Source: Deltaproteobacteria bacterium (GTDB lineage Bacteria; Desulfobacterota; Desulfuromonadia; Desulfuromonadales; JAAYDE01). From it: DNA of 64,000 nt. Every line of letters begins with the position of its first letter. The stretch's first letter is position 1. The stretch covers positions 1,177-65,176 of the forward strand of contig JAAYDE010000009.1 of assembly GCA_012729375.1 (NCBI GenBank), given 5' to 3'. Made by a program: the position numbers and the translations under genes. A model generated the notes under the pieces. That model was not told where the DNA came from. It searched no databases and was given only the letters and a program-made list of their open reading frames with translations. This document shows positions 1 through 41,531 of this stretch, one piece after another.

Positions 1-455
1 GCTGGAGCTACGGACTGTCCCTGCGCCTTCCACTCGATTTCTGGCAAACCCGCTTTCGTGAACAAATGGCCGATGCCCGTTGCCGTGAGGCCGCGGCCAA
101 TTATGAGAAGGCGGTGCAGGCGGCTTTCAAAGACGTCCGCGACGCCCTTACCCGGCAGAATTACCTGGCCGATGCGGCGACGGCTCTCACCGGCCGCCTG
201 GAGAACCTGGAGGAGGCCGTGGCCCACGCGGAAGACCGCTACCGCAACGGTTACTCCAGTTTCATTGATCTCCTCGACGCCGAACGCTCCCTCTTCGATA
301 CCCAGCTGAACTGGGCGCAGAACCGGACTCTCCATCTCCACGCGATGGTGGATCTGATCATGGCCCTGGGCGGAGGCTGGGAAGACGACCCGTCGAACAG
401 GCCCCTTCTACCCCGGATATCCACCAGGGATTTCCCGCAAGGAGAACAACCATGA
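1..455 (+). CDS. RND efflux outer-membrane factor (OprM/NodT family), C-terminal fragment; 5' end is outside the window
   Basis: The frame is open from the window edge (frame of nt 3) to TGA 453-455. The translation WSYGLSLRLPLDFWQ...RYRNGYSSFIDLLDAERSLFDTQLNW...ALGGGW resembles the conserved C-terminal repeat of OMF proteins. The stop overlaps the next start (ATGA). Confidence 0.8.
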   Translation, partial: WSYGLSLRLPLDFWQTRFREQMADARCREAAANYEKAVQAAFKDVRDALTRQNYLADAATALTGRLENLEEAVAHAEDRYRNGYSSFIDLLDAERSLFDTQLNWAQNRTLHLHAMVDLIMALGGGWEDDPSNRPLLPRISTRDFPQGEQP

Positions 456-1636
456 AATGTTTTTGGCGACCTCAAAACCTTTGGGCGGTTTGGGTTCCTG
501 GCCTGCTCTGCCTTCTTCTGGCGGGATGTTCGTCCGACAACGGCTCCGCCCAGTCAGGACCGGGACGACCTCTGCCCCAGGTCCTGGTGGAGCGGATCAT
601 GCGCCGCGATATCCCCTACACCCAAACCTTTGTCGGCCACGTGGAAGGCCAGCACTCCGCCGAGGTTCATGCCCAGGTCAGCGGAATTCTCCAAAAACGG
701 GTTTACAAGGAAGGGGAATCGGTCGCCAAGGGGCAGGTGCTTTTCGAAATCGACCCGGCCCCCTATCAGGCCCAGGTGGATCAGGCCCTGGGCCGGGTCA
801 ACAGTGTCCGGGCGCGGCTCGCCAACGCCCAAAGGGATATGGAGCGGGCCATCCCTCTGGCCCGGCGCAACTCCATAAGCCAGCGGGAAAAGGACATGGT
901 GCAGGCCGCCTTTGACGCGGCCCGGGCGGAGATGGAAGAAGCCCAGGCGGCGCTGCGCGCCGCCCGCATCCAGCTCGATCTGACCCGCGTCAGGGCGCCC
1001 ATCGCCGGCTTCGCCAGCATGGCCCTGCGCACCGAGGGCAGCCTGATCACCGCCGGCGCACCCAACAGCCTGCTGACAACCGTCAACAACATGGATACCG
1101 TTCAGGTGGTTTTCAGCGTTTCCGACTCCCTGGTGCGGCGGATCAAAGGCCACTTGAACCGGAACCGGGCCACGATGGGAAAAACCGTTGCCGCCACTCT
1201 GGTGATCGACGGCGACCATCCTTACCCCCATGAAGGTACCCTCGCCTTCGGCAATCCCGTCATCAACCGGGATACCGGCAGCATGATCGGCAAGGCCCTC
1301 TTTCCCAATCCCGACAGGGAGCTGCTGCCAGGCCAGGTGGTGCGCCTGAACCTCCACCTGATGACCTTTCGCAACGCCCTGGCCGTGCCCCAGCACGCCG
1401 TCCTCCAGACCGACCAGGGGTCGATGGTCGCCGTCGTCGACGAGGAAGACAGGGTGTCTTTCCGGCCGATCAGCGTGGCCGCCATCCTCGACCGGGAGTT
1501 TCTGATCGACACCGGACTGACCGGAAATGAGCGCGTCGTCGTCGAAGGGGTGAACAAGATCGCCCCGGGGATGAAAGTGATCCCCCATGCCGCCGACAAC
1601 GGAACGGCTTCCCACCACGGGGCGGGAAAGGGGTAG
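452..1636 (+). CDS. RND efflux membrane fusion protein (periplasmic adaptor, AcrA/MexA/HlyD family), lipoprotein
   Basis: Signal peptide with lipobox LLAGC (MKCFWRPQNLWAVWVPGLLCLLLAGCSS). Adaptor-type motifs VLFEIDPAPYQAQVDQA and RVRAPIAGF. RBS GGAGA at 441-445. Confidence 0.9.
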   Translation: MKCFWRPQNLWAVWVPGLLCLLLAGCSSDNGSAQSGPGRPLPQVLVERIMRRDIPYTQTFVGHVEGQHSAEVHAQVSGILQKRVYKEGESVAKGQVLFEIDPAPYQAQVDQALGRVNSVRARLANAQRDMERAIPLARRNSISQREKDMVQAAFDAARAEMEEAQAALRAARIQLDLTRVRAPIAGFASMALRTEGSLITAGAPNSLLTTVNNMDTVQVVFSVSDSLVRRIKGHLNRNRATMGKTVAATLVIDGDHPYPHEGTLAFGNPVINRDTGSMIGKALFPNPDRELLPGQVVRLNLHLMTFRNALAVPQHAVLQTDQGSMVAVVDEEDRVSFRPISVAAILDREFLIDTGLTGNERVVVEGVNKIAPGMKVIPHAADNGTASHHGAGKG

Positions 1637-1642
1637 ACACCG

Positions 1643-4600
1643 ATGAAGGATTTCTTTTTCCTGCGGCGGCCGGCACTGGCCATTGTGGTGTCGGTCATCA
1701 TTGTCGTCCTTGGCGCCTTGGCCCTGCGCCAGCTGCCGGTGGCCCAGTATCCGGATCTGGTGCCGCCGGCGGTTTCGGTGACCGCCTTCTATCCCGGCGC
1801 CAGCCCTGAAGTCATTTCCCAGGTTGTCGCCGCGCCCCTGGAGAAGGCCATCACCGGGGCCAAGGATCTCCTCTATCTGCAATCGACCAGTGCCGCCAGC
1901 GGCATGATGGCACTGACCGCGACCTTCAGCCTGGGGGTCGATCCGGAGGTGGCCAGCAGCCGCATCAGTAATCTGGTCCAGGGGGCGCTGGCCCAGCTTC
2001 CGGAGGAAGTCCGCCGCCTCGGGGTCAGCGTCACTGCGGGAACCGGCTCCTTTTTGCAGATCATCACCCTGTCCAGTCCCGACGGCCGCTATGACAGCCT
2101 GTTTCTGAACAACTACGCGGCCCTGAACCTGATCGACGCCCTCAAACGGATTCCCGGCGTGGCCTCCGCCGACTCGCTGATCTCCGAAGAATACTCCATG
2201 CGCGTCTGGTTCGATCCCGCCAAATTGGCGGCTTTCGGCCTCACCCCCCAGGACATCGCCGCGGCCATCCGCGAGCAGAACGCCCAGTACGCCGCCGGCA
2301 CCGTCGGCCTGCAGCCGGCGCCCGACGACCTGAAGATGTCCTGGCTGGTCAGCACCCGGGGCCGCATGGCCACGGAAGAGGAATTCGGCAACATCATCCT
2401 GCGCGTCGACGAACGCAAGGGGATCATGCGCCTGCGCGACGTGGCCAGGGTGGAACTGGGCGCCGCCGACTACAGCGTGCGCAGCAAACTCAACGGCAAG
2501 CCGGTGGCCGGCATCAGCATCTCCCTGACCCCCGGCGCCAACGCTCTGGCGACGGCGGACCAGATCGCCGCCACCATGGCGGAACTGAGCCGGGATTTCC
2601 CTCCCGGCATGGAATACGCCATCCCCTACAACGTCACTACCTTCGTGCGCATTTCCATCGAGGAGGTCATCCAGACCCTCTACGAGGCCATGTTCCTGGT
2701 GGCGCTGGTCATCTTCCTCTTCCTGCAGAACCTCCGCGCCACCCTCATCCCCTGCATCGCCGTTCCCGTTTCCATCATCGGCACCCTGGCGGGGATGTAT
2801 CTGCTCAATTTCTCCATCAACACGCTGACCCTTTTCGGCATGGTGCTGTCCATCGGCGTGGTCGTTGACGACGCCATTCTCGTCCTCGAGAACGTGGAAC
2901 GGCTCATGCGCGAGGAAGGAATTTCCGCCTGGAAGGCGACCTCCCAGGCGATGCGCGAGGTCACCGGACCGGTGATCGCCTCGGTCCTGGTCCTGGCCGC
3001 CGTTTTTGTGCCGGTCTCCTTCATAGGCGGAATGACGGGGGAGATGTTCCGCCAGTTCGGCATCACCATCGCCCTGTCCGTGGCCCTGTCCGGAGTGGTC
3101 GCCCTCACCCTCACCCCGGTCATGTGCTCTTCACTGCTCCGCATCTCCCACGGAGCGCCCCAGGGACGTTTCTTCCGTCTCTTCAACCGCGGTTTCGAAC
3201 TGCTGACCGAAGGTTATATGTGGGCCGTCCGCCTGGTGCTCCGCTATGACCTGCTGGCCGTCCTGGCCATGGTCGTGCTGCTCTGGGGAACCTGGTTCCT
3301 GTTCAAACACATCCCCGCCGGCCTGGCTCCCGATGAGGATCAGGGCTACATCATCGCCGCCGCCATGCTTCCCGACGGAGCGGCCATGCCGCGCACCGAC
3401 CGGGTTCTCGACCGGGTGTCGGCGGCCATGCGCGAAGACTCGGCAGTGGACGCCGTGCTGACCATCGCCGGAAGCGATATTTTCGGCGGCAGCGGCTCCC
3501 TGGGCAGCGCCGGCGCCGCCTTCATCATGCTTCGCCCCTGGGACGAACGCAAAGAGCCCTCCCGCTCCGCCCAGGCGATGGCGGCCAAGGTTTTCGGCAT
3601 CGGCATCACCGACGGCATGGTGGCCGCCTTCAACCCGCCCCCCATCGTCGGCCTCAGCGCCCTGGGCGGCATCGAAGGCTTCTTGCAGAACCATACCGGC
3701 GCCGCCATCGAGGAGATGGCCGAACAGGCGGGCAAACTGGCCGCCGCCGCCGCTTCCCGTCCGGAACTGCGCGGCGTCGGCAGTTCTTTCAGCCTGGGCA
3801 CGCCCAAGATCTATCTGCAGCTGAACCCGGAAAAGGCCAAGCTGATGGATGTGCACATCGGCGATGTCTATCAGGCCCTCAGCGCCACCCTTGCGGGCAG
3901 CTACATCAACGATTTCACCTTGCAGGGCCGGGCCTTCAAGGTGTATATGCAGGCCGAAGCCAAATTCCGCTCCAGCCCCAAAGATCTGGAGGCGATCTAC
4001 GTCCGCAGTCGTACCGGCAACATGATTCCCCTGGCCAACCTGATAACCGCCACGACCACCAGCGGCGCCTTTTCCCTGACCCGTTTCAATGGTCTGCCCG
4101 CCGCCCGTCTCTCCGGCCAGGCCGCTCCAGGCTACAGCAACACCCAGGCCATGGCCGCCATTGAGGAAATCGCCCGCAGCGAACTTCCCACAGGCTACTC
4201 CCTCGCCTGGAGCGGTTCTTCCTACCAGGAGAAAACCAGCGGCGGAACCAACTACACCGTCCTGCTCCTGGGCCTGGGCATCGTCTTTCTCATCCTCGCC
4301 GCCCAATACGAAAGCTGGAGCCTGCCCACCGCCGTCATTCTGGCCGTACCCTTCGCCCTTTTCGGCGCCTTGGCGACAATTTTCCTTGCCGGATACGCCA
4401 ATGATATTTATGTTCAGGTAGCCTTGGTCACCCTGATCGGACTGGCCGTCAAAAACGCCATCCTCATTGTCGAGTTCGCCGCCATCGAGCTGAACAACGG
4501 CAAATCGCCCACGGAGGCGGCGCTGACCGCCGCGGCGCTGCGCTTCCGCCCGATCATGATGACCTCCCTGACCTTCATCCTCGGCTGCATCCCGTTGGTG

Positions 4601-4762
4601 ATTTCCAGCGGTGCCGGCTCGGCCAGCCGCCACGTTCTCGGCAGCAGCATCATCGGAGGGATGGTCGCCGCCTCTCTCATTTCGCCGATCTTTGTGCCCT
4701 GGTTTTTCAAGGTGGTGATGGTTTGCCAAGGCAAGCTGACCAAAACAACGGAGGAAAAATGA
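1643..4762 (+). CDS. RND multidrug/metabolite efflux permease (AcrB/MexB, HAE1-type)
   Basis: 1039 aa with the typical N-terminus FFLRRPALAIVVSVIIVVLG, the conserved VVDDAILVLENVER motif and two large periplasmic loops between TM bundles. Confidence 0.95.
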   Translation: MKDFFFLRRPALAIVVSVIIVVLGALALRQLPVAQYPDLVPPAVSVTAFYPGASPEVISQVVAAPLEKAITGAKDLLYLQSTSAASGMMALTATFSLGVDPEVASSRISNLVQGALAQLPEEVRRLGVSVTAGTGSFLQIITLSSPDGRYDSLFLNNYAALNLIDALKRIPGVASADSLISEEYSMRVWFDPAKLAAFGLTPQDIAAAIREQNAQYAAGTVGLQPAPDDLKMSWLVSTRGRMATEEEFGNIILRVDERKGIMRLRDVARVELGAADYSVRSKLNGKPVAGISISLTPGANALATADQIAATMAELSRDFPPGMEYAIPYNVTTFVRISIEEVIQTLYEAMFLVALVIFLFLQNLRATLIPCIAVPVSIIGTLAGMYLLNFSINTLTLFGMVLSIGVVVDDAILVLENVERLMREEGISAWKATSQAMREVTGPVIASVLVLAAVFVPVSFIGGMTGEMFRQFGITIALSVALSGVVALTLTPVMCSSLLRISHGAPQGRFFRLFNRGFELLTEGYMWAVRLVLRYDLLAVLAMVVLLWGTWFLFKHIPAGLAPDEDQGYIIAAAMLPDGAAMPRTDRVLDRVSAAMREDSAVDAVLTIAGSDIFGGSGSLGSAGAAFIMLRPWDERKEPSRSAQAMAAKVFGIGITDGMVAAFNPPPIVGLSALGGIEGFLQNHTGAAIEEMAEQAGKLAAAAASRPELRGVGSSFSLGTPKIYLQLNPEKAKLMDVHIGDVYQALSATLAGSYINDFTLQGRAFKVYMQAEAKFRSSPKDLEAIYVRSRTGNMIPLANLITATTTSGAFSLTRFNGLPAARLSGQAAPGYSNTQAMAAIEEIARSELPTGYSLAWSGSSYQEKTSGGTNYTVLLLGLGIVFLILAAQYESWSLPTAVILAVPFALFGALATIFLAGYANDIYVQVALVTLIGLAVKNAILIVEFAAIELNNGKSPTEAALTAAALRFRPIMMTSLTFILGCIPLVISSGAGSASRHVLGSSIIGGMVAASLISPIFVPWFFKVVMVCQGKLTKTTEEK

Positions 4763-5607
4763 AGTTTCAAACAATCGCCGTGGTCGGCGCCGGAGTCATG
4801 GGGCGGGGGATCGCCCAGGCTCTGGTGATGAACGGCTTGGATGTCGTTCTCATCGATGTCGATATCGGCGCCCTGGACAAGGCCTGCCTGGAAATCCGTC
4901 AAAGCCTGCGCATGCAGGGGCTTTTCGGCAAGGACAGCGTCGATGTCGAAGCGTGCCTCGCCCATATCCGCTGCACGACGGAACTGGGTCATGCGGCGGC
5001 GGCCGATTTCGTGGTCGAAAACATCACCGAGCAGCCCGACCTCAAAGAACCCCTCTATCGGCGTCTGGATGAAGTCTGCCGCCCCGAGGTCCCTTTCGCC
5101 GCCAACACCTCGGTCATCTCCATCACCCGCATCGGCTCCTGGACACAACGCCCGGACCGGGTCGTCGGCATGCATTTCATGAATCCGGTGCCCCTCAAAC
5201 CGGTAGTCGAGGTCATCCGCGGCCACCACACCAGCGACGACACCCTCGACCGGGCCAGGGCCTTCCTCAAACAGATGAAAAAGCGGGCCGTCGTTGTCAA
5301 CGATCTGCCCGGCTTCGTTTCCAACCGGGTGCTGATGCTCACCGTCAACGAAGCCGTCTGGGTGGTGCAGGACCAGGTCGCTTCCGCGGAGGATGTCGAC
5401 CGGATCTTCAGATCCTGTTTCGGGCACCCCATGGGTCCTCTCGAAACCGGCGACCTCATCGGCCTCGACACGATTCTCTATTCCCTGGAAAGGCTTTTCG
5501 AAAGCTACAATGACCCCAAATTCCGCCCCTGCCCTTTGCTGCGCAAGATGGTTGACGCGGGTCTTTTGGGCCGCAAAAGCGGCAGGGGTTTCTACAATTA
5601 CCAATGA
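4759..5607 (+). CDS. 3-hydroxyacyl-CoA dehydrogenase family protein; FkbK/ZmaG-like candidate glyceryl-ACP dehydrogenase
   Basis: Rossmann motif VVGAGVMGRGIAQ; HADH core HFMNPVPLKPVVEV and ETGDLIGLD. ATG 4759 overlaps the pump stop (ATGA). The ORF-track start at 4723 would overlap the pump by 40 nt. Confidence 0.85.
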   Translation: MKFQTIAVVGAGVMGRGIAQALVMNGLDVVLIDVDIGALDKACLEIRQSLRMQGLFGKDSVDVEACLAHIRCTTELGHAAAADFVVENITEQPDLKEPLYRRLDEVCRPEVPFAANTSVISITRIGSWTQRPDRVVGMHFMNPVPLKPVVEVIRGHHTSDDTLDRARAFLKQMKKRAVVVNDLPGFVSNRVLMLTVNEAVWVVQDQVASAEDVDRIFRSCFGHPMGPLETGDLIGLDTILYSLERLFESYNDPKFRPCPLLRKMVDAGLLGRKSGRGFYNYQ

Positions 5608-5647
5608 TCCGGCTGCCGCTGAAGCCGGAGCAGAAAAAGGATGAGGA

Positions 5648-5893
5648 ATGGCTGAGGAAATCCGTGAAAAAATTCGGGATTTTGTGCTCAAATATGTCAG
5701 GGATGAGGAACTGGCCGATGACGAGAACATGTTCGACCTCGGCTACGTCAACTCCCTCTTTGCCATGCAGTTGGTCATGTTCGTCGAAAAGGAATTCCAG
5801 CTGACCCTCGGCCGCGACAGCATCCGTCTGGCCAATTTCCAGTCCATTGACGCCATCGTCGCCCTGATTGAAGGGCAGCGGCAGGGGGCCTGA
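5648..5893 (+). CDS. Free-standing acyl carrier protein (FkbJ/ZmaD-like)
   Basis: 81 aa and acidic. Phosphopantetheine-attachment pattern GYVNSLFAMQL (Ser codon 5753-5755). Sits between two dehydrogenase genes and fkbH. Confidence 0.8.
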   Translation: MAEEIREKIRDFVLKYVRDEELADDENMFDLGYVNSLFAMQLVMFVEKEFQLTLGRDSIRLANFQSIDAIVALIEGQRQGA

Positions 5894-5894
5894 T

Positions 5895-7031
5895 ATGGAT
5901 CGGGCCGCCTGCATGCGGGAGTGGATCGACGCCTTTGTTTTCCCCCAGGCCAACGCCTGGGAGGAAAGACAACAGCTGCCCCCCGCCATCCTTGACGACT
6001 TCGCTTGCCGCGGCTGGTTCGGTGCCGCTCTCCCGCCGCGCTGGGGGGGGCTCGGTTGCGACAGCGAAACCCTGGCCCGTTTCTGTGCCGAAATGGCCCG
6101 GGGCAGCGTCTCCCTGCTGAGCATCTTCACTGTCCACAACATGGTCTGCCAAGCCCTGTTGCGCTGGGGGGCCGCCGACCAACAGGCGGTCTGGCTGAGA
6201 CAGCTGGCCTCCGGCGCGGTGCGGGCCGCTTTCGCCCTGACCGAACCGGAGTTCGGCAGCGAAGCGACGGGGATTCGCTGCCGGGTGGCTCGAAACGGAG
6301 ATGAGCTGATCGTGAACGGCGCCAAAAAATGGATCTCCGGGTCCTGCCACGCCCAGCTTTTCCTGGTCATGGCGCGGGCCAAGGAAGAGGGGCTGATGGC
6401 CCTTCTGGTTCCCGCCGACACTGCCGGCCTGCGAATCACGCCGATGCCCGATCTTTTGGGCTTCCGCGCCGCCGGCATCGCCCGCCTCGACTTCGCCGAC
6501 TGCCGCCTGCCCGCCTCCGCCCTGATCGGCGCGCCGGGCGCAGGCTTCACCTTCGTCGCCGCCCATGCCCTGGATCACGGCCGCTTCACCGTCGCTTGCG
6601 GCTGCCTCGGGGTTATCGAAGCCTGTCTGAGGGCCAGCGTCGCCTACGCCAACCAGCGCACCCAGTTCGGCCAGCCGTTGCGCCGCCACCAGCTCATCCA
6701 GGCGCTGGTCGCCGACATGGCCACCGACCTGGAGGCGGCGCGGGCGCTGGTTGAGCGGGCCGCCAAACAGCGCGACAGCCAGGCCGCGGAGTCGATCACG
6801 GCCACCACCATCGCCAAATATTTCTGCTCGCGGGCGGCGCTGCGTGCAGCCACGGACGCCCTGCAGATCCACGGCGGCAACGGCTGTTCTCCCGAGTATC
6901 CTGTGATGCGCTACTACCGCGACGCCAAGATCTGCGAAATCATCGAGGGAAGTTCCCAGATGCAGCAGCTGATGATAGCCAGCCACGCGTTCATGAGGGA
7001 ACGTCCCCAGCGGAGACGCCGCCATGGCTAA
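5895..7031 (+). CDS. Acyl-CoA dehydrogenase family protein; FkbI/ZmaE-like
   Basis: ACAD-type segments LTEPEFGSEA, QRTQFGQPL and C-terminal CEIIEGSSQMQQL. ATG 5895 lies 1 nt after the ACP stop. Confidence 0.85.
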   Translation: MDRAACMREWIDAFVFPQANAWEERQQLPPAILDDFACRGWFGAALPPRWGGLGCDSETLARFCAEMARGSVSLLSIFTVHNMVCQALLRWGAADQQAVWLRQLASGAVRAAFALTEPEFGSEATGIRCRVARNGDELIVNGAKKWISGSCHAQLFLVMARAKEEGLMALLVPADTAGLRITPMPDLLGFRAAGIARLDFADCRLPASALIGAPGAGFTFVAAHALDHGRFTVACGCLGVIEACLRASVAYANQRTQFGQPLRRHQLIQALVADMATDLEAARALVERAAKQRDSQAAESITATTIAKYFCSRAALRAATDALQIHGGNGCSPEYPVMRYYRDAKICEIIEGSSQMQQLMIASHAFMRERPQRRRRHG

Positions 7032-8052: not shown

Positions 8053-8234
8053 CCCTGCCCGCTCTTTACCGGGGCGACGCCATGAGAGCAATGGCGACCC
8101 ACAGACTGAAGGAAACGGATATCCCCGAAAATCAGCCCTGCCGCCCTGCCGTCATGAACCGGTTGTCGGGGGTTGACCGGTTCCGGTTTCTGCCAGCCGC
8201 CGGTTTCCAGTTGGCGACTCGCTAGGGAGGTGTC

Positions 8235-14200: not shown

Positions 14201-14870
14201 CGCCGCCGCCATCTGCTGGGGTCCCTGGGCGGACGGGGGGATGGCCGCCGAATCGGCACGGCACAGCGACCATCTGTCGCGGCAAGGCATTCTCCCCATC
14301 CGCGGCAAGGAAGCCTTTGCCGCCTTCCAGGCCGGAAACTCCCTTGACTTTTGTGAATTCGCGGTGATGATGATCGACTGGCAGCGCTTTGCCGCGCGCC
14401 GCCGCGACCTGGGGCAGGCCATCGACGGGCGGGGATATTTTCAGTCCCTGGCGGCCGCAAAACAGGCGGACAAGTCGCGGACCGCACCGCCCCAGGCCGT
14501 CCTCGGCAAAAACGATGATGCCGCGGCGCTGCTGACGGGATTGCGCCGCATCGCGGGCAATCTCCTCGGGCTTTCCGAGGTGGCCGCCATCGCCGCCGAC
14601 AAACCCCTGATGGAGCAGGGTTTCGACTCCCTGCTGGCGGTGGAATTCCGCAACATCGTTGCCCGCGAACTGGAAAGGACGATTCCCGTTTCCATGATAT
14701 TCGAATACCCGACCCTGGAAAAGATGGCCGGCTGGCTCTGCGCCGGCGAAAATTCGGCCCCGCAGGCCACCGCTCCGGCCGACCGGCGTACCCCGGCCAC
14801 CGGCCCCAGAAAGGACGGCGCCGATGAGCTGCTGGCGGATATCGACCACCTTCTCGGGAGCGACGCCTGA
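8235..14870 (+). CDS. Type I polyketide synthase, AT(L)-ACP(L)-KS-AT-DH-KR-ACP
   Basis: AT(L) GHSGGE (Ser 8514-8516) and VPFH (8811-8822). ACP(L) LGVTSL (Ser 9363-9365). KS DTACSSG (Cys 10077-10079), EAHGTGT, NIGHLE. AT GHSIGEY (Ser 11379-11381) and HAFH (11673-11684). DH HVICGKAISP (His 12270-12272) plus DSILQ. KR GGNGALG (13716-13736), LDD, SNYNAAN. ACP GFDSLL (Ser 14628-14630). Confidence 0.95.
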   Translation: MDKMAFVFSGIGTQWPEMGRDLWETDADFAAGFDAFDTPFRRLSGWSVADVLYRNPADIGPAQWGHPCVLAVEFGLFQVLQHHGFHPDLILGHSGGEVAAAWAAGILRPSEAALLAWRHSLLLEQAAGGGKMLFIALPAAEVETLLEPYTGHITIAAVNSPRGTVCGGEEALLQELAAAQPPDTFCRLLPVDVPFHTGAIEPFLESFEMALVPLNPRRPRLPIVSTLHGGPWRTGDFGGAYWRRHVREPVLFAAALQCAMDQGCRRFVELSPHAVLQASIQETAAARGIRVISCGLMARDLEGSVTLAQGLDLLRSWQNAGAPSAGVSAGDDRREDEQKSPGTQRRLREWIRTDLEKLLPGQNLAENAPFQSLGVTSLTALRLCAALTERLGVPVPASAVFNYPDIGSLANHLAALAQGTSSRNAAGAQDDNPAAAREPLAVIGVSCRFPGGINDMDGLWNFLAAGRDAVVPIPAERWDRERYYSADRQAPGKMYTREGAFLAAPNPPIENFDAFFFNISAREALQLDPQQRLLLELSWEAFENGAIDPFAWRGKEVGVFVAMTNNEYSHAHRESYHRERIDAYSLTGTTMSGACGRLSYFYGFEGPCFTVDTACSSGIVALHAACQSLRRGESAMALVASVTLMLTPDLHICFSKLGAISPDGRSKAFDDGADGYGRGEGGAALVLKRLSDAERDGDPILGLIRGTAINQDGKSNGLTSPNGRAQQKVIAGALADAGLLAEEVDYVEAHGTGTALGDLIELEALADAYGARRRQPLRVGSVKANIGHLEPAAALASLLKLLLCFRHGAIPANIHIKTPNSRFDWHKRLLQAPTSLVPWDSDRRRRAGMSAFGFSGVNGHAIVEEYSRPEPAADGAPSAFLLLLSAKSADALRQLARACADKVEQMTPAMLAGLCRSAACRHSHFPWRIAITATGPADMAAQLRQANPAAASSPPSSLALLFTGQGSQYPGMGEELYRNYPVFRDAIDHCARILEKQGIDLIALLYGATPAQELARTAHAQPAIVAVSYALWRLWEACGLRFEHTAGHSIGEYPAAVAAGIMTLEEMLRLAAARGRCMEDAPPGAMAAVFSGASEIHEVLKKHPQITLAAVNAPASLTLAGAEDAMDGLLEELAKRGIGHKRLHVAHAFHSPAMERAASRFLAHLQDVALSPPTGMAFVSTVTGAAEESRVCRRDYWAGQILAPVRFAAAVTALARESALAVEAGPSASLSGLVKQCSDSWRSIPSLAPGQGSLFSLLTAAGHLYQEGLDLRWQELFAPFNPQVVPLPPYPFQRERFWMPVQTDPPEGFDRRRSVLGRRLSTPALGATAVFETTFSDAGPLFVQEHVICGKAISPAAGHLAMLLAAARELWGESACELHNVDFLHPLVVQPGDRRLVQVIVDNPGAAASALRLVSRGDGEELWLVHCTATLKRDPSAAPLPAFQPGEVFAEEQAPESFYERFLSHGYEIGPGFRRIDRISIRDGESLCRVQARRGDSCEDGHVIYPGALDSILQTILPPFFQELAKTMAAEESLLIPLSMERLRLWRQVPGEVWCHSRARRSLRDAALVGETLAVDGEGNPIVQLAGLTFRMTDRATLYRQLNSDPLELVYAQHWEEADMPPAKGENPLLVFPVGDGVLASALATLPGTAGIPAALQSAALADWLKRNLPGAGGAELLVAHSRKTREAKEILGAEAGAWEEADCRRFLELLQAVSRTPLNVRLHLLTSGIMAVQKGDPCRPAGAGLWGMAASFALEHPHLWGHAIDMPSDLGKDHQEDLQQALHLCRSAAAAETSALRQGVLYRCRLHRAKGKVEAARPWRGTHLISGGNGALGLQTARWLAEQGAEAVALLSRSGIPPAAQDQVTALRRSGVQVIVLIGDVSKGEDVDRALQQIRLEAPPLRGVFHAAGVLDDGVVADLTAARLSAVLAPKIRGAVHLHRATLGVDLDHFVLYSSAGTFLGSQGQSNYNAANHFLNALARHRQALGLPAAAICWGPWADGGMAAESARHSDHLSRQGILPIRGKEAFAAFQAGNSLDFCEFAVMMIDWQRFAARRRDLGQAIDGRGYFQSLAAAKQADKSRTAPPQAVLGKNDDAAALLTGLRRIAGNLLGLSEVAAIAADKPLMEQGFDSLLAVEFRNIVARELERTIPVSMIFEYPTLEKMAGWLCAGENSAPQATAPADRRTPATGPRKDGADELLADIDHLLGSDA

Positions 14871-14873
14871 CCG

Positions 14874-17831
14874 ATGGACATGGCTTTGGAACAGCGCTAC
14901 AAAGAGATCCTGCTCAAGGCTCGGGCCACCATCCAGCGGCTGCAGCAGCAGGTCGACGCCTTTCACGAACCGGTGGCGATCATCGGCATGGCCTGCCTTT
15001 TCCCCGGTGACAACGGCGGCGACGCCGACACCCCCGATCTTTTCGGCCGGCTGCTCGCCGCAGGTTACGACGCCGTCGCCGCCATTCCCCCCGACCGCGC
15101 CCGCTGGTGGCGCTCCCGCCATGGCGAAAAGGAAAAACCGCAAAGCCCCGGCCTCGACCGGGCCGCCCTGCTGAAACAGGACATCTTCTCCTTCGACCGG
15201 GAACTTTTCGGCCTGACGCCGGCCGAGGCGCGCATGACCGATCCCCAGCACCGCCTGCTCCTCGAGCTCTCCTGGCTGGCGCTCCTCGACGCCGGGCTGT
15301 CACCGGAAAGCCTGCGCGGCTCCGACACCGGCGTTTTTGTCGGCAAAAGCGGCACCGACTTTCTTTTCGACATTCTCGGGACAGGGAGAAGTTCCGCCGA
15401 CGACCCCTATACCCTGACCGGCAACATGCACAGCGCCCTGGCGGGGCGCATCTCCCACTTCCATGACTGGCACGGCCCTTCCCTCTCCTTCGAAACCGCC
15501 TGCTCCACCGCCCTGGCCGCGGTGATGGCGGCGGTCACCAGCCTGCGCTCCGGGGAATGTTCCCTGGCCCTGGCCGGCGGGGTCAATCTGCTCCTCGGGC
15601 CGACCCCCAGTCACTGGCTCAACAGCATGCATTCCCTGGCTGCCGACGGCCGCTGCAAGGCCTTCGGCGCCGGCGCCGACGGCTTCGGCCGCGGCGAGGG
15701 GGGCGGCGCCGTAATCCTGCAACGGCTGGCGGACGCCCGGCGCGCCGGCAACCGCATCCACGCCCTGATCCTCGGCGGCGCCGTCGGCTCCGATGGGAAA
15801 AGCGGCAGCTTCACCGCCCCCAACAGCAAGGGGCAGCGCCTGGTAATGACCCGCGCCCTGGCCGATGCCGGCGTCGCTCCGGCAGAGGTCGCCTTTGTCG
15901 AAACCCACGGCACCGGCACCCCTCTCGGCGATCCCATCGAGGCGGAGAGCCTCGCCCAAGTTTACGGCCCCCGGGAGGAGAAACTGCTCATCGGCTCGGT
16001 CAAAAGCAATATCGGCCATCTGGAAGGGGCCTCCGGCATAGCGGCACTGATCAAGGCGGTGCTCGCCGTCCGTGACGGCCGCATCCCCAAGACCCTTCAC
16101 AGCGAGCCCCCCAATCCGCTCCTCGACTGGGACTCCCTGCCCATAAAACCCAACCGCCACACTCTGGCCTGGCCCGCCGTTTACGAACGGCGCATCGCCG
16201 CCATCGACAGCTTCGCCATCGCCGGCACCCTGGTTCACCTGCTGGTGGCCGAATTCGTTCCCCCGCCCCGGCCGGAAAATGACCAAAGGACCACGGCCGC
16301 CCCCCAGATCCTGACCCTGTCCGCCCGCAGCCGCGAAGATCTTCAAGTCATGGCCGACGACTGCCTGCGCCGACTTGAGGAGGGAAACCCATTGGCCGAG
16401 ATGTGCCTGGCCTGCGCCCTGGCCAGGCCCCACGAGGAGGAGCGCCTGGCGCTGACCGCCGCCGACGCCGCGGAAGCTATCCAGGGCCTGCAGGCCTTCC
16501 GCGCCGGCAAAAGCCAGCGCAACCTCGTCTGCGGCCGCCGCCAATCCGGCCCGCCGCCGGTCCTGTTCCTGTTCAGCGGTCAGGGATCCCAACTGGCGAC
16601 CATGGGCCGGGAGCTTTACGCGGCCTTCCCCTCCTTCCGCCAGACCCTGGACCGCTGCGAGGAAGTGGCGGCGCCACGCCTCGGCGCCTCCCTGCGGGAC
16701 ATCCTTTTCGCCGCCGACGAGCCCCGCCTCCATCAGACACGCTTCACCCAGCCGGCCATCTACGCCCATCAGGCGGCCCTGGCTGACCTCTGTCGGGAAC
16801 TGGGCATCGGTCCCGCAGCGGTCCTCGGCCACAGCATCGGCGAATACGCCGCCGCCTACGCCGCCGGCGTCTTCACTCTGGAAACGGGCCTGGAAATCAC
16901 CCTCAAGCGGGGCGAACTGGTCTCCGGGATCACCACGGCCGGGGGCATGGCGGCGGTTCTCGCCGGTGAGACGGATGTCCTGCCGACGCTGGACGCCTTG
17001 CCGGGAGTGTCCGTCGCCGCCGTCAACGGCGACGCCACGGTCACCATCGCCGGGGTGCTGAAAGAGGTGGAGGAGGCCTGCCTCAGGCTCCGGGAACAGG
17101 GGCTGGAGAGCCGCCCGCTGCCGGTTTCCCATGCCTTTCACTGCCCCCTGGTCGAGCCGCTGCTGGATGACTTCCGCGCCTTTCTGCGCCGCTTCGACTT
17201 CCGGAAACCGGCCGTTCCCTTCCTTTCGGCCTGCCGCGGCGCCTATCTTCCCGCAGAAACCGACTGGCCCGATTATTTCTGCGCCCAGACCCGGCAGCCG
17301 GTGCGCTTCGCCGACGCCGTCAAGCGGGCGGAGACCGCCACCTTCCTGGAACTGGGGGCGCAGCCGACCCTCACCGCCTACGGCCGCCAGATCCGCGGCG
17401 ACGCGACCTGGCTCTTCACCCAGAACGGCGCCCTCGGCCTGCGCCCATTGGCCCAGGCCCTGGCCCGGCTCTACGTGGCAGGCTACCCGATCGGCCGCGG
17501 CTGGCCCTTCAGCGGGGAATGGCGGCCCGAGGCGGCACCCCGCTACCGGTTTAGGCGGGAACAGCTTCTGCCCCCCCCCTGGGCCGCCGAACCACAGGAC
17601 CAAGCCGTGCCGCCGCCTCCGGAAACCTTTTTGGCCCCTCCTCCCGCGATCCGCACCTTGGCGGACAGGGAAGACCCCGCGGTACAGCTGGCCATCATGC
17701 AGTGCGATATCTTCCGCCAAGTGTGCGCCATGCAGAATTCCCTGCTCGCCGGGGGCGCGGGCAACGCCGGGCCGACGCCGATGCAAGGCGGGCGTGACAA
17801 AAATCCGGAACCGGATGTCTTAACGGGATAA
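14874..17831 (+). CDS. Type I polyketide synthase, KS-AT didomain with a Pro-rich C-terminal tail (no ACP, no TE)
   Basis: KS ETACSTAL (Cys 15501-15503), ETHGTGT, NIGHLEGASG. AT LFSGQGSQ, GHSIGEY (Ser 16833-16835), SHAFH (17130-17141). The last ~100 aa are Pro/Ala-rich and lack a DSL carrier motif. Confidence 0.9.
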   Translation: MDMALEQRYKEILLKARATIQRLQQQVDAFHEPVAIIGMACLFPGDNGGDADTPDLFGRLLAAGYDAVAAIPPDRARWWRSRHGEKEKPQSPGLDRAALLKQDIFSFDRELFGLTPAEARMTDPQHRLLLELSWLALLDAGLSPESLRGSDTGVFVGKSGTDFLFDILGTGRSSADDPYTLTGNMHSALAGRISHFHDWHGPSLSFETACSTALAAVMAAVTSLRSGECSLALAGGVNLLLGPTPSHWLNSMHSLAADGRCKAFGAGADGFGRGEGGGAVILQRLADARRAGNRIHALILGGAVGSDGKSGSFTAPNSKGQRLVMTRALADAGVAPAEVAFVETHGTGTPLGDPIEAESLAQVYGPREEKLLIGSVKSNIGHLEGASGIAALIKAVLAVRDGRIPKTLHSEPPNPLLDWDSLPIKPNRHTLAWPAVYERRIAAIDSFAIAGTLVHLLVAEFVPPPRPENDQRTTAAPQILTLSARSREDLQVMADDCLRRLEEGNPLAEMCLACALARPHEEERLALTAADAAEAIQGLQAFRAGKSQRNLVCGRRQSGPPPVLFLFSGQGSQLATMGRELYAAFPSFRQTLDRCEEVAAPRLGASLRDILFAADEPRLHQTRFTQPAIYAHQAALADLCRELGIGPAAVLGHSIGEYAAAYAAGVFTLETGLEITLKRGELVSGITTAGGMAAVLAGETDVLPTLDALPGVSVAAVNGDATVTIAGVLKEVEEACLRLREQGLESRPLPVSHAFHCPLVEPLLDDFRAFLRRFDFRKPAVPFLSACRGAYLPAETDWPDYFCAQTRQPVRFADAVKRAETATFLELGAQPTLTAYGRQIRGDATWLFTQNGALGLRPLAQALARLYVAGYPIGRGWPFSGEWRPEAAPRYRFRREQLLPPPWAAEPQDQAVPPPPETFLAPPPAIRTLADREDPAVQLAIMQCDIFRQVCAMQNSLLAGGAGNAGPTPMQGGRDKNPEPDVLTG

Positions 17832-17890
17832 AGCCGCCGCGGAGCAGAGAAAAGCTTTTGCCGCCCCGGCGCAGAACGGAGCGATAAACC

Positions 17891-19543
17891 TTGGAACAAT
17901 TCGAGTTTCTTTTCAGCCTCATTCGCCGCTCGGGAAACGACAACCGCAAACTGCTCTGGTCGTCCATCGCCTCGGGCGTTCTCCAGGGGATACTCCTCTA
18001 CACCATCGGCGCCTCGGTGAGCGAGCTGTCGACGGACGGGGTTCTGTCCCTGCGCACCTTTCTGCTCTTCGTCCTCAGCCTGGTCGGCCTCTACAAGAGC
18101 CTCAACATCTCCATGAACATCAGTTCCGGGGTGGCCAGGGGCATCGTCACCGACCTGGAAGTCCGCATCACCGACAAACTGAGCCGAACCAGCTACGCCC
18201 ACTTCGTCACCCTCGAGCAGGGGCGCATCTACGACGCCATCACCGGCAGCAAGGATATCGTCAACGAGGCGGCCATCATGCTGCCGGTATTCATCTGCAG
18301 CAGCACGATGCTGGTCTGCTCCCTGGCCTTCTCCGCCTTTATCTCCGTTGCCGCCGTCACCTCGGTGCTGCTGGTCATGGGGTTGGGGGCTGTTACCTTT
18401 TTTTACAGCGACAAACAGTTCATCGCCGCCCTCCACGTCTATCGCGATTCCGTCCAGCGCTTCCAGTCCGCCCTCAAGGATGTCATCCTCGGCTTTACCG
18501 AACTGAAGATGAACGAGAAACGGCGTCAGGCCGTCTTTGCCGAGCTGATCGCCCCCCTTTCCCAAAAAGCCCTCGAGGGGCGCACCACGGCCGACGGCTT
18601 CCGCGTCAAGAATACGGTCATGTACGGCCTTTTCGTCTATTTTCCGGCGGGGGCGTTGCTCTTCATTCTCCCCCAGACCGGCCTGGCCACCCTCGATCAA
18701 TGCATTACCGTGGTCGCCATAACCATGTTCAGCACCATTCCTCTGATCGGCCTGCTCTCCTTCATGCCGCTGGCGGCCCGCGCCTCTTTCATCGTCAAAG
18801 GTCTGGAGCAGTTCGAGGCCTCCCTCGAGAAGATGGTCGATACCGCCAACGGCGCCGCCGATGCGCCTGCCGATTTCCTGGAAATCTCCATTCCCGAAGC
18901 GCGTTTCCACTATCCCCTGCAGCCGGGGGCGACGATTCCTTTTCAGCTGGAGGTGCGGGGTTTCCGCCTCAAGCGAGGGGAACTGGTCGTGCTGCGGGGA
19001 GGCAACGGCAGCGGCAAAAGCACCTTCATGCACCTGCTGGCCGGACTGATCCCTTTCAACCAAGGGGAGGTTTTCCTAGATGGAAAGTCCATGCAGGCCG
19101 AGCCGGCCCGTTATCGCTCCCTCTTTTCAGTTGTTTTCCCCGATTTCCACCTTTTCGGCGGCATCTACGGTCTCCCTGCGCCCCGGGAAAAAGTCCTGGA
19201 ATTGCTGAAGCTCATGGATCTCGACCGCAAGGTCGAGGTGGATGAACAGGGGCGCTTTTCCACCATCGAACTTTCCTCCGGCCAACGCAAACGCCTGGCG
19301 TTGATCTGCGCCATGCTGGAGAACAGGCCGGTTCTTCTCCTCGACGAGGTCGCCGCCGATTTCGACCACCACTTCCGGGAGTTCTTTTACCGCGAGCTTC
19401 TCCCGAACCTCAAAGCGGAAGGAAGAACGCTGCTGGTGGTATCCCACGACGACCGCTATTTCGATTGCGCCGACCGGGTTCTCACCCTCGAATACGGCTC
19501 CTTCATCCCCACCGCCAACGCAAACGGAGCCGGCCGGCCATGA
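17891..19543 (+). CDS. ABC exporter, fused permease-ATPase (SyrD/YojI-type cyclic-peptide exporter family)
   Basis: N-terminal multi-TM domain. NBD with Walker A GGNGSGKST, signature LSSGQRKRL and Walker B LLLDEVAAD. The TTG start comes from the ORF track. Confidence 0.85.
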   Translation: MEQFEFLFSLIRRSGNDNRKLLWSSIASGVLQGILLYTIGASVSELSTDGVLSLRTFLLFVLSLVGLYKSLNISMNISSGVARGIVTDLEVRITDKLSRTSYAHFVTLEQGRIYDAITGSKDIVNEAAIMLPVFICSSTMLVCSLAFSAFISVAAVTSVLLVMGLGAVTFFYSDKQFIAALHVYRDSVQRFQSALKDVILGFTELKMNEKRRQAVFAELIAPLSQKALEGRTTADGFRVKNTVMYGLFVYFPAGALLFILPQTGLATLDQCITVVAITMFSTIPLIGLLSFMPLAARASFIVKGLEQFEASLEKMVDTANGAADAPADFLEISIPEARFHYPLQPGATIPFQLEVRGFRLKRGELVVLRGGNGSGKSTFMHLLAGLIPFNQGEVFLDGKSMQAEPARYRSLFSVVFPDFHLFGGIYGLPAPREKVLELLKLMDLDRKVEVDEQGRFSTIELSSGQRKRLALICAMLENRPVLLLDEVAADFDHHFREFFYRELLPNLKAEGRTLLVVSHDDRYFDCADRVLTLEYGSFIPTANANGAGRP

Positions 19544-20274
19544 AGCTGTTTCTTTTGGGGCACGCCGGGGGCAGCCCCGGCACCTACGTCCCCCGCCTCG
19601 CCTCCCTGGCCCGCCGCCTGGAACTGATCCCCCTTGATCTGCCGGGGCATGGGCGGCGCATCGATGAACCTCTTGTGGAAACGGTGCCGGACATGGTGGC
19701 CGACCTGCGCCATCAACTGCGCCCCTTTTTCCAGGGGAAGGGGGAACGCTACGCCCTCTTCGGCCACAGCATGGGAGGATTGCTCGCTTTCGCCCTGCAG
19801 TTGTCCCTGGCCGCGGAAAGGCGCTATCCCCTCGCCGAGCACCTTTTCGTCTCCAGCACCTGTTTTCCGGGGCGGCACCACATTCCTGCCGAGCTGCCCC
19901 ATCTTGCAGACCGTGAATTGTGGTTCAAAAGCGCCGCCTATTTCAGCGGCATAAGCCAGGAGGTGGCCGCCAGCAGCGAACTGATGGCCCTTTTCGCCCC
20001 CATCCTGCGCGCCGACCTCAAGGCGGTGCTCGCCTGGTCCCCGCGGGAGATAGAACCTGTGCCCGTCCCCTTGACCGTCATGGCCGGAAAAGCCGATATC
20101 GTCAACCGGAAGGATCTGGAATTCTGGCGGAATTACACGACCCGGAGTTTTTCCGCCCATCTTCTCCCCGGCAATCATTTCCATCTCCTCGACAATCCCC
20201 GGGCCGTGGCAGCTCTGGTTCTTTCCTCCCTGCCAACCCTTAAGGATTCCTTGGGGAATCCCCTTTTCCCTTGA
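19540..20274 (+). CDS. Type II thioesterase (alpha/beta hydrolase)
   Basis: 244 aa. Begins MKLFLLGHAGGS. Nucleophile elbow GHSMGG and C-terminal His in GNHFHLL. ATG 19540 overlaps the ABC stop (ATGA). Confidence 0.85.
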   Translation: MKLFLLGHAGGSPGTYVPRLASLARRLELIPLDLPGHGRRIDEPLVETVPDMVADLRHQLRPFFQGKGERYALFGHSMGGLLAFALQLSLAAERRYPLAEHLFVSSTCFPGRHHIPAELPHLADRELWFKSAAYFSGISQEVAASSELMALFAPILRADLKAVLAWSPREIEPVPVPLTVMAGKADIVNRKDLEFWRNYTTRSFSAHLLPGNHFHLLDNPRAVAALVLSSLPTLKDSLGNPLFP

Positions 20275-20285
20275 AGCCAGCGCCC

Positions 20286-21728
20286 ATGAACCTGCCGATC
20301 CGCAACAAGCTTTTTCTGAGCCATCTTCTTCTGGTGGTGTTCATCGCCGGCACCATCGGCGTCTATTTCTACATCAGCGCCTCGCAAAGCCTTCTGCTCC
20401 GCCTTCAGGAACGGCTTCAGGCCAGCGCCGCCCTCATCGGTCCCATGATCGACGCGGACGAAATCCGCCACCTGCGCGGCATCGAGGACACCTCCCGGCC
20501 GGATTACATTAACAATCTGGCCAAGCTTCGAACCCTGCGGCGGATGAATCCAGACATCGCCTATCTCTATGTGATGAGACAGGAAGGGGAGAAGGTCTAT
20601 TTCGTTCTCGATTCCGATGAAACCAAAGACCAGGCTCTCCCCGGCCACGAATACAAACACAGGATACCCAGTCTCCTTCAAGGCTTCACCGCCATGGCGG
20701 TTGACGATAAAATCATCCGGGACGAATGGGGATCCTTTCTGTCCGGCTACGCCCCGATCCGCAACAGTCAGGGGGAATTTCTGGTGGGCATCGACATGCG
20801 CGCCGACGAAGTCACCGATAAATACCGGCATCTGAGGATTTCCGGCCTGGTTTCCCTCCTCGCCGCCGGCGGCCTGGCCTTTGTCCTCTCCCGGTTTCTG
20901 GCCGACCGTTTCATGGTGCCCATCGATCTCACCATTTCCCGTTGCGCGAGAATAACCGGGGGACATCTCGACGAGCAGATCTCCTTGCGAACCAACGATG
21001 AATTTGACCGTCTGCTCGGCGCTTTCAACACCATGTCGGCCACCCTTGCTGCGGCGGAGGAAAAGAAGCGGCAAGTTATGGCCTCCTTGCGTCAGGCCAG
21101 GGACGAACTGGAGATCCGCGTCCGCCAAAGAACCAACGATCTGAAAGAGGTCAACGACAAGCTGACCCGGGAAATCGCCGAACGTCTGGCCGCCCAGAAG
21201 GCCCTTCAGGAAGTCGCCACCATCGACCCGTTGACCCGCCTGTACAACCGCCGCTCCTTTCTGGAACAAATCGAGCACGAAGCGATCCGGAGCCGCCGAA
21301 ACCGACGTCCCTTTGCGGTCGTTATGGTCGATATCGATCACTTTAAAAACATCAACGATGATTTTGGACACGCCGCCGGGGACAGCATTCTGATGGAAAC
21401 CGCCCTGCGGATGAAAGGCATGCTCCGCGGGCAGGATATGATTGCCCGCTGGGGAGGAGAAGAGTTTGTCATCCTGCTGGTTGATACCGACCTCGATGGG
21501 GGCGCCATCGTCGCCGAAAAGATCCGTCGCCGGATCGCCGACGGAATCTATTATTTTGCGGGAGAAACACTGTGGGTAACCGCCAGCTTCGGCCTGGCGG
21601 AATATCAGGGGGAAACGAATCTGGAGGAACTCATCAAGGCGGCCGACACGGCCCTTTACCGGGCCAAAGAAAGGGGCCGCGACCGGGTGGAAATTCACCG
21701 GGCTCAACAGCCCGGCAGTCTATCGTAA
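20286..21728 (+). CDS. Sensor diguanylate cyclase (TM - periplasmic sensor - TM - HAMP - coiled coil - GGDEF)
   Basis: GGEEF active site (21453-21467). RxxD I-site (RGQD) five residues upstream. DIDHFKNINDDFGH metal/substrate motif. An alternative TTG start at 20271 overlaps the TE stop. Confidence 0.85.
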   Translation: MNLPIRNKLFLSHLLLVVFIAGTIGVYFYISASQSLLLRLQERLQASAALIGPMIDADEIRHLRGIEDTSRPDYINNLAKLRTLRRMNPDIAYLYVMRQEGEKVYFVLDSDETKDQALPGHEYKHRIPSLLQGFTAMAVDDKIIRDEWGSFLSGYAPIRNSQGEFLVGIDMRADEVTDKYRHLRISGLVSLLAAGGLAFVLSRFLADRFMVPIDLTISRCARITGGHLDEQISLRTNDEFDRLLGAFNTMSATLAAAEEKKRQVMASLRQARDELEIRVRQRTNDLKEVNDKLTREIAERLAAQKALQEVATIDPLTRLYNRRSFLEQIEHEAIRSRRNRRPFAVVMVDIDHFKNINDDFGHAAGDSILMETALRMKGMLRGQDMIARWGGEEFVILLVDTDLDGGAIVAEKIRRRIADGIYYFAGETLWVTASFGLAEYQGETNLEELIKAADTALYRAKERGRDRVEIHRAQQPGSLS

Positions 21729-21756
21729 ACAGATGCGTTTAGAAAATCACCTTTCC

Positions 21757-41528: not shown

Positions 41529-41531
41529 GGC

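Follow-up and report, generated by a model that had tools for sequence, protein, structure and literature searches.

Hybrid assembly lines that place a beta-amino-acyl residue at the head of a peptide have been described for mycosubtilin and iturin (MycA/ItuA) and for microcystin (McyE), in which a ketosynthase (KS) performs a malonyl-type extension on an acyl carrier protein (ACP), followed by a class-III aminotransferase and by condensation (C), adenylation (A) and peptidyl carrier protein (PCP) domains. The zwittermicin (ZmaN-ZmaD-ZmaG-ZmaE) and FK520 (FkbH-J-K-I-G) pathways share four protein families, encoded by contiguous genes, for an extender unit carried on an ACP; for such units the acyltransferase (AT) domain of ZmaA displays the signature GYSFG, GAAH and a hydrophobic MxM patch, and ZmaF has been compared as well (Park et al. 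2014, PMC4207774). The syringomycin lipopeptide cluster is served by both the ATP-binding cassette (ABC) exporter SyrD and the resistance-nodulation-division (RND) system PseABC (PMC3039948). S12 peptidases with extracytoplasmic action that activate N-acyl-D-Asn prodrugs (ClbP, XcnG and ZmaM) are encoded in clusters that combine nonribosomal peptide synthetases (NRPSs) and polyketide synthases (PKSs). In this study, a stretch of 64,000 nt from contig JAAYDE010000009.1 of a Deltaproteobacteria bacterium, hereafter the window, was investigated with regard to a run of PKS, extender-unit and efflux genes at nt 1-21728. Our reading, to which we assign a probability of about three in four, is that this run constitutes one arm of a divergent hybrid PKS-NRPS cluster of ~45 kb that is cut by the left edge of the window.

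The twelve-gene run and the neighbouring NRPS

An earlier note on this DNA had described twelve co-directional genes with operon-like packing, and this description is upheld by the open reading frame (ORF) table and the junction sequences. All twelve genes are consecutive on the + strand of nt 1-21728, and their families, assigned in that note, agree with Pfam and NCBIfam. The genes, and the domains of the two PKS proteins (dehydratase, DH; ketoreductase, KR; the suffix L marks loading domains), are as follows.

..455, +: outer membrane factor (OMF), 3' part of the gene (PF02321 OEP, E=2.7e-15)
452-1636, +: membrane fusion protein (MFP), periplasmic adaptor of the RND pump (TIGR01730, 249.9 bits)
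1643-4762, +: RND permease of HAE1/AcrB type, 1039 aa (PF00873, 1044.8 bits; NF000282, 1262.6 bits against a cut-off of 1250)
4759-5607, +: FkbK/ZmaG-like enzyme of the 3-hydroxyacyl-CoA-dehydrogenase family (PF02737, PF00725)
5648-5893, +: free-standing ACP, FkbJ/ZmaD-like carrier of a glycerate-derived unit, 81 aa (PF00550, 28.9 bits)
5895-7031, +: FkbI/ZmaE-like enzyme of the acyl-CoA-dehydrogenase family (three ACAD Pfam domains)
7024-8052, +: FkbH-like HAD-IIIC glyceryl-ACP-forming enzyme (TIGR01686, 267.5 bits against a cut-off of 146.65)
8235-14870, +: PKS1, 2211 aa, AT_L-ACP_L-KS-AT-DH-KR-ACP (Pfam domains)
8235-9134 and 9267-9509, +: PKS1 loading domains AT_L and ACP_L, respectively (Pfam)
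9546-10682, 11115-11993, 12177-13022, 13698-14234 and 14541-14738, +: PKS1 module, KS, AT, DH, KR and ACP, respectively (Pfam)
14874-17831, +: PKS2, 985 aa, KS-AT (KS, AT and linker Pfam families only)
14967-16103, 16566-17513 and 17571-17828, +: PKS2 KS, AT and Pro-rich tail with a conserved helix, respectively
17891-19543, +: fused permease-ATPase ABC exporter, YojI/SyrD-like (NF007813, TIGR01194)
19540-20274, +: type II (editing) thioesterase, TEII (PF00975, 88 bits; GHSMG nucleophile elbow)
20286-21728, +: membrane-bound HAMP-GGDEF diguanylate cyclase (PF00990, 161.8 bits, plus HAMP)

The junction sequences contain the ATGA overlaps at 452/455, 4759/4762 and 19540/19543, the 8-nt overlap at 7024/7031, and the sole long gap of 182 nt (8053-8234), all as the earlier note had given them; the other gaps are of 6, 40, 1, 3, 59 and 11 nt, and a recognisable Shine-Dalgarno sequence stands ahead of most of the twelve genes. 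The left edge of the window cuts the OMF gene, and on the right the run stops at 21728 because the next gene, encoding a radical-SAM (S-adenosylmethionine) protein at 21757-22500, is convergent on the - strand. The ORF at 21733-22461 (+) was considered as a thirteenth operon gene or a phosphopantetheinyl transferase (PPTase) gene and was rejected, as it has no family match and the overlapping - strand ORF is the radical-SAM gene.

PKS1 carries the motifs DTACSS/HGTGT/NIGH, HxxxGxxxxP, LDD (B-type KR) and GFDSL. With its predicted-active DH (HxxxGxxxxP) and B-type KR (LDD), the PKS1 module should therefore leave a trans-2-enoyl chain. The AT_L shows GHSGG..VPFH, and its carboxylate-binding Arg position reads R/A/E/A across the family and is followed by a conserved His, a pattern typical of loading ATs for monocarboxylic acyl units. 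In PKS2, the catalytic residues are intact in both the KS (TACS/HGTGT/NIGH, Cys-His-His) and the AT (GHSIG...HAFH); no PP-binding Pfam domain was detected in the protein, and its 85-residue Pro-rich tail is without a GxDS motif. A PKS that ends in KS-AT cannot complete a chain alone, and the operon encodes no chain-releasing type I thioesterase (TE). PKS2 belongs to a family of stand-alone KS-AT proteins of 941-1117 aa (43-65% identical to PKS2), in which Cys210, His345, His382 and Ser654 are invariant among 26 members and Q943 and Q954 are conserved. Members were found in deltaproteobacterial, betaproteobacterial, alphaproteobacterial and Latescibacteria assemblies, including one in the cultured Desulfoplanes formicivorans.

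The sequence beyond the left edge was recovered by a look-up of the 345-aa MFP with a 10-kb flank. Exact-sequence look-ups found the window sequence on several metagenome contigs, and contig L026 (ENA ERZ778039 NODE_653) is identical to it throughout their 11,636-bp overlap (0 mismatches), with L026 9403 corresponding to window position 1. On this contig the OMF gene starts 1144 nt left of the window (full 532-aa gene at L026 8259-9857; full-length OMF proteins have 486-532 aa), and left of its start (8259) lies an AT-rich divergent intergenic region of 118 bp. It is followed on the - strand by genes for a DUF697 protein, a 1231-aa S12 peptidase-like autotransporter and a 5484-aa NRPS, which starts ~6 kb left of window position 1 and is transcribed divergently from the twelve-gene arm.

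L026 3446-8140, -: DUF697 membrane protein and 1231-aa S12 D-peptidase-like autotransporter, ahead of the NRPS
First 1144 residues of the NRPS, - strand: ACP 11-77 (GLDSL), Aminotran_3 243-553, C 649-1056, then the start of an A domain

The NRPS aminotransferase is of class III, related to glutamate-1-semialdehyde aminomutase, and carries the GK lysine. Since PKS2 lacks an ACP and the NRPS opens with ACP-aminotransferase, the NRPS would therefore be the missing partner of PKS2. The domains expected of a beta-amino-acyl hybrid are present, namely a competent KS in PKS2 and ACP-Aminotran_3-C-A in the NRPS (L026, outside the window).

Related loci point in the same direction. A synteny table was prepared by tblastn over nine of them, and their main arrangements are given below.

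L007 (Desulfoplanes formicivorans), L008 and L009: PKS1-PKS2-TEII, then on the opposite strand a PPTase and an NRPS of 5423-5431 aa (ACP-aminotransferase-C-A)
L015: cassette, PKS1, PKS2, TEII, DUF697, S12 autotransporter and NRPS, all co-directional
L105 (PKS2 44% identical): NRPS (ACP-aminotransferase-C-A-PCP-C) starting on the PKS2 stop codon
L010 and L011/L012: cassette-PKS1-PKS2-ABC-TEII

In five relatives (L007, L008, L009, L015 and L105), the PKS1/PKS2 pair stands next to an NRPS that opens with ACP-aminotransferase-C-A, and the overlap in L105 is the co-linear arrangement expected of a putative split module. TEII, 35-59% identical in the relatives, mostly follows the PKS2 or ABC gene and lies upstream of PKS1 in the distant relative L105, which also has a gene of the asparagine-synthase family between two NRPS genes (19323-21119). 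The cluster family has thus undergone rearrangement across phyla. The nearest named carrier of the cluster is Desulfoplanes formicivorans, of the order Desulfovibrionales, with the PKS pair, RND pump, TEII, PPTase and NRPS; its genome paper makes no mention of the cluster, and the literature on Desulfoplanes secondary metabolism yielded nothing relevant. Scanning genome contigs with PKS1 only found no relative, and the scan with the PKS2-family alignment, swamped by generic KS motifs, found only unrelated PKSs of 33-43% identity.

The earlier note had taken the twelve genes for a self-contained unit in which a small free polyketide is made, exported and used for signalling, and for which the free-standing ACP would have to serve PKS2 and TEII would have to release the chain. 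It is true that the genes are tightly packed on one strand, that a free-standing ACP and a thioesterase are encoded, and that L010 and L011 possess the core from cassette to TEII with no NRPS within 10 kb downstream. Nevertheless, PKS2 has no ACP, the operon has no type I releasing TE, and the same organism possesses, ~6 kb from the window edge on the identical contig L026, an NRPS whose first domains are just this ACP and an aminotransferase. Five other lineages carry such an NRPS in an adjacent or co-linear position. Moreover, the free-standing ACP is a conserved FkbJ-type carrier of the extender-unit cassette, and the GGDEF gene is not conserved. The twelve genes are therefore not self-contained, and we consider the contrary view very improbable.

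Under the divergent-cluster reading, the product would most likely be a short peptide with a polyketide-derived beta-amino-acyl head, made by mycosubtilin/microcystin logic. The N-terminal AT-ACP of PKS1 would load a monocarboxylic starter, and its KS-AT-DH-KR-ACP module would add one C2 unit to give a trans-2-enoyl chain. PKS2 would then condense the next unit on the N-terminal ACP of the NRPS, where the adjoining pyridoxal-phosphate (PLP) aminotransferase would turn the beta-keto group into a beta-amine, and the C domain would hand the chain to ~4 NRPS modules, with release by a terminal TE, possibly as a macrolactam through the beta-amine. Hydroxymalonyl-ACP would be used at one of the two extensions, which would give a 2-hydroxy-3-amino-enoyl head if PKS2 is the point of use. 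TEII would act as the usual editing enzyme, and the ABC exporter and RND pump would take the product over the inner and outer membranes. The NRPSs of relatives end in a TE. The predicted product is thus a peptide of ~4-5 residues whose beta-amino (possibly alpha-hydroxy) enoyl head would have C6-C8. The locus needs to be analysed as a unit of ~45 kb that reaches beyond the window; run on nt 1-22500, as the earlier note had proposed, antiSMASH would wrongly class it as a type I PKS standing alone.

The extender-unit cassette and the presumed entry of hydroxymalonate

The four cassette families are encoded by consecutive genes (4759-8052), in an order kept in the relatives whose loci cover the cassette, and the cassette is conserved in 8/9 relatives. 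The FkbK-like gene is 71-80% identical in eight relatives and heads the cassette every time, while the free-standing ACP bears the motif GYVNSLFAMQLV with its Ser invariant in eight orthologues. In the comparison of the 5895-7031 protein with known structures, FkbI (PDB 1r2j) reached 206 bits and the top match 220 bits; the mechanical ORF of this gene opens at TTG 5868, and metagenome contigs call ATG 5895. The FkbH-like protein contains DLDDT and MSCRV, i.e. the DxDxT phosphatase motif and the conserved Cys of FkbH-type enzymes. As judged from these families, the cassette is complete for an extender of hydroxymalonyl-ACP type made from a glycolytic intermediate. Neither the twelve genes nor those of the left arm encode a methyltransferase such as the FkbG-type O-methyltransferase, and therefore the hydroxy rather than the methoxy form is implied.

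Several observations weigh against the proposed reading, and the first concerns how hydroxymalonate would enter the chain. The signature of ATs for ACP-linked extenders (GYSxG, GAAH and a hydrophobic MxW/MxM patch) is present in 0/3 ATs, which read GHSGG/VPFH/FCR in AT_L, GHSIG/HAFH/GHK in the PKS1 extension AT and GHSIG/HAFH/ESR in the PKS2 AT. Both extension ATs thus bear the malonyl-CoA signature GHSIG..HAFH, and neither they nor AT_L resemble ZmaA or ZmaF. The NRPS lies outside the window, and its link to PKS2 would rest on adjacency, conservation and domain complementarity; its number of modules, about four, is an estimate from protein length and the count of ~20 precomputed Pfam entries on the 5484-aa protein. 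In L010 and L011/L012, no NRPS was found within 10 kb downstream; as their upstream flanks are unseen or at a contig break, these loci do not decide the NRPS link. Lastly, searches for promoters and terminators gave nothing beyond what chance would produce. The 182-nt gap at 8053-8234, whose counterpart in relatives spans 24-248 nt, has no Rfam match and no promoter or terminator match, and it folds no better than shuffled sequences (z=0.33).

The N-terminal AT of PKS1 was tried as a hydroxymalonyl-ACP AT and rejected, since its carboxylate-binding Arg position is not conserved (R/A/E/A). We conjecture that PKS2 is chemically the most attractive entry point for the hydroxymalonyl unit. A combination of hydroxymalonyl extension with an aminotransferase domain was not found in the searchable open-access literature.

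Export genes, surface peptidase and flanking genes

The OMF, MFP and 12-transmembrane (TM) RND permease genes are found together (PF02321, TIGR01730 and NF000282), as in a tripartite HAE1 system. For the MFP, a start at nt 452, where the gene overlaps the OMF stop (ATGA), is favoured by a strong Shine-Dalgarno sequence (AAGGAG) and by the presence of an OMF/MFP overlap in relatives L013 and L014; most metagenome annotations place the start at nt 599 (345 aa). In L007, L013 and L014, the tblastn synteny table shows an RND permease of 76-77% identity immediately ahead of the pathway genes, and in the latter two it is accompanied by OMF and MFP genes at 54-61% identity (MFP 60-61%). As the permease keeps its place in these three loci despite the divergence of their PKS genes (identity down to 55-64%), the pump is a conserved component of the cluster family in its deltaproteobacterial branch, and the link between pump and pathway suspected in the earlier note finds support in three other lineages with pump genes upstream. 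Through the 4-nt ATGA overlap at 4759/4762, the RND stop codon runs into the start codon of the FkbK-like gene, the first of the biosynthetic genes, which would tie pump production to pathway expression; the overlap is specific to the source lineage, gaps of 72-198 nt being found in L007, L013 and L014.

Alternatively, the pump could serve general multidrug or housekeeping efflux and stand upstream by chance, so that the overlap has no pathway-specific meaning. The permease does match generic multidrug RND models (NF000282 and TIGR00915), the more distant relative L012 has no pump at the corresponding position, and the overlap gives way to gaps of ~70-200 nt in the three loci named above. Yet the pump genes have stayed directly upstream of the pathway in four lineages despite PKS divergence (55-62% identity), they head the operon here and share the AT-rich divergent intergenic region with the NRPS arm, and syringomycin offers a documented case of a lipopeptide cluster that uses an ABC exporter as well as an RND system, making a chance neighbour unlikely. 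With that precedent, the arrangement of ABC plus RND export is sensible and not unprecedented. The ABC exporter scores 264.7 bits with NF007813, its best match (cut-off 604), and 253.2 with TIGR01194 (cyclic-peptide exporter, SyrD; cut-off 286.2); L010 and L011 have a counterpart of 63% identity at the corresponding place.

On the left arm, the S12 passenger of the autotransporter displays the motifs SxxK (SQSK), YxN (YSN) and HxG (HGG) and is closest to the Bacillus alkaline D-peptidase (PDB 4y7p, E=1.8e-10) and the R61 DD-peptidase. DUF697 and the S12 autotransporter also precede the NRPS in L015 (49% and 53% identity). A metagenome-contig scan with the autotransporter N-terminus matched S12 homologues that were all distant and had no cluster genes around them, and a protein search with the N-terminal fragment gave no match. 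Membership of the ClbP-type N-acyl-D-Asn prodrug peptidases was considered and rejected, the protein having an autotransporter barrel and not a three-helix anchor; this identity is further weakened by the absence of ClbP from the PDB matches and by the first NRPS A domain of L015, which is Leu-like and not Asn (manual Stachelhaus reading, approximately DAW(Y/F)LGSIT). In a strain variant (L004 1-1830, ERZ764845 NODE_1706), identity to the reference stops 35 bp upstream of the OMF start, and an IS66-family transposase stands where DUF697, autotransporter and NRPS lie on the reference. Either an assembly join or, in a co-occurring strain, an insertion sequence within the divergent promoter region may account for this.

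A bolder version of the divergent-cluster reading, which we put forward as a long shot, is a peptide with an N-terminal 2-hydroxy-3-amino-enoyl residue, for which hydroxymalonyl-ACP would be taken up through a HAFH-type AT or by the KS directly, the in-line aminotransferase would act next, the pump would expel the product and the S12 autotransporter would trim or activate it at the surface. If true, this unreported combination of extender use and amination would amount to a new enzymatic way of making the alpha-hydroxy-beta-amino acid warhead of bestatin/microginin-type protease inhibitors, with extracellular maturation at the outer membrane by an S12 D-peptidase autotransporter.

At the right end of the run, the diguanylate cyclase looks functional: besides two TM segments, a HAMP domain and a periplasmic sensor region, it carries GGEEF (residue 390) and an RGQD I-site (RxxD, residue 381). 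It could be a working part of the cluster that couples sensing of product or environment to c-di-GMP signalling, considering these features, its strand and its 11-nt gap to TEII (start at ATG 20286, or a 4-nt overlap with TEII if TTG 20271 is the start). We find this rather unlikely, however, since no tblastn match to the gene was obtained in the nine related loci, its Shine-Dalgarno sequence is weak, local GC falls to 58%, and the 3' end of TEII (20244-20261) holds a 7-bp hairpin (GGATTCC..GGAATCC) followed by a T-run, CCTTTTCCCT, just ahead of the GGDEF start. The hairpin could be a weak terminator or attenuator that splits the cyclase from the pathway operon. Given its absence from the related loci (0/9), the cyclase is probably a lineage-specific neighbour, possibly read through, and not a defining member of the cluster, and the "signalling unit" of the earlier note is not supported.

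The genes noted to the right of the cluster are listed below.

21757-22500, -: radical-SAM protein
23532-24149, +: HAD hydrolase
24431-25300, +: protein with a C-terminal pterin-4a-carbinolamine dehydratase domain
26243-27988, -: 2-oxoacid:acceptor oxidoreductase alpha subunit
28022-28732, -: hemerythrin-domain protein
28729-29475, -: SAM methyltransferase
30013-30099, -: tRNA-Leu(TAA); ARAGORN and Rfam detected no other RNA gene in the window
31479-32816, -: biotin carboxylase AccC
38711-40984, -: PilQ-type type IV pilus secretin (TIGR02515, 397.7 bits)
46515-48209, -: CoA-disulfide-reductase-like flavoprotein (under its cut-off)
60686-62062, -: TrpB-like PLP enzyme

Next to the PilQ gene, four consecutive - strand ORFs (40986-43798) may be pilus assembly genes. 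No PPTase gene was seen among the window ORFs examined, and L007-L009 have one next to TEII. The core metabolic genes (those of the 2-oxoacid:acceptor oxidoreductase, AccC, the CoA-disulfide-reductase-like flavoprotein and the TrpB-like enzyme) are consistent with an anaerobic host. GC amounts to 64.9% in 1-21728 and 59.0% in 21729-64000, with a dip to 51.6% at 22-24 kb, which would agree with an amino-acid bias of PKSs or with acquisition by horizontal transfer. The cluster itself resembles a mosaic, its ABC-TEII arrangement being like that of betaproteobacterial relatives and its pump and cassette like those of deltaproteobacterial ones.

Comparison with known systems

The earlier note could match the gene set to no characterised pathway, and the searchable literature, MIBiG not being part of the comparison, likewise offered none. 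To our knowledge, modular PKS-NRPS products of strictly anaerobic deltaproteobacteria are almost unknown. The cluster family described here is uncharacterised and recurs in anaerobic-digester and sediment metagenomes. The cultured type strain Desulfoplanes formicivorans DSM 28890 has a close version that includes the PKS pair, RND pump and NRPS, which makes the family experimentally accessible.

By analogy, the logic of the locus would combine the beta-amino modules of MycA/ItuA and McyE, a zwittermicin-type extender cassette and syringomycin-type dual export. The order of KS extension on an ACP, class-III aminotransferase and C-A is shared with MycA/ItuA and McyE. Unlike in those systems, the KS and the ACP-aminotransferase are on separate polypeptides with the NRPS on the opposite strand, adjacent and co-linear only in L105; the acyl chain would come from an AT-ACP loader and a reducing PKS module instead of a fatty acyl-AMP ligase; there is a hydroxymalonyl-ACP cassette; and the hosts are anaerobic Gram-negative bacteria. 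The four cassette families and their contiguity are those of zwittermicin and FK520. In contrast to the FK520 set, there is no O-methyltransferase, in keeping with a hydroxy form as in zwittermicin, and in contrast to zwittermicin, no AT here has the ZmaA-type signature for ACP-linked extenders. With syringomycin/syringopeptin export in Pseudomonas syringae, the locus shares a fused ABC exporter and a tripartite RND system for one cluster; as a difference, the biosynthetic operon here opens with the pump genes, the first pathway gene begins within the RND stop overlap, and the ABC protein scores under the curated cut-off of the SyrD-containing family. The S12 fold with SxxK, YxN and HxG in an NRPS-PKS cluster, with presumed extracytoplasmic action, is as in ClbP, XcnG and ZmaM, whereas the S12 domain here is an autotransporter passenger at the outer-membrane surface without the three-helix inner-membrane anchor. 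In summary, the locus would be set apart from the known systems by a split module on divergent arms, an AT-ACP loader, the lack of a cognate AT signature, a pump at the head of the operon and a surface S12 peptidase.

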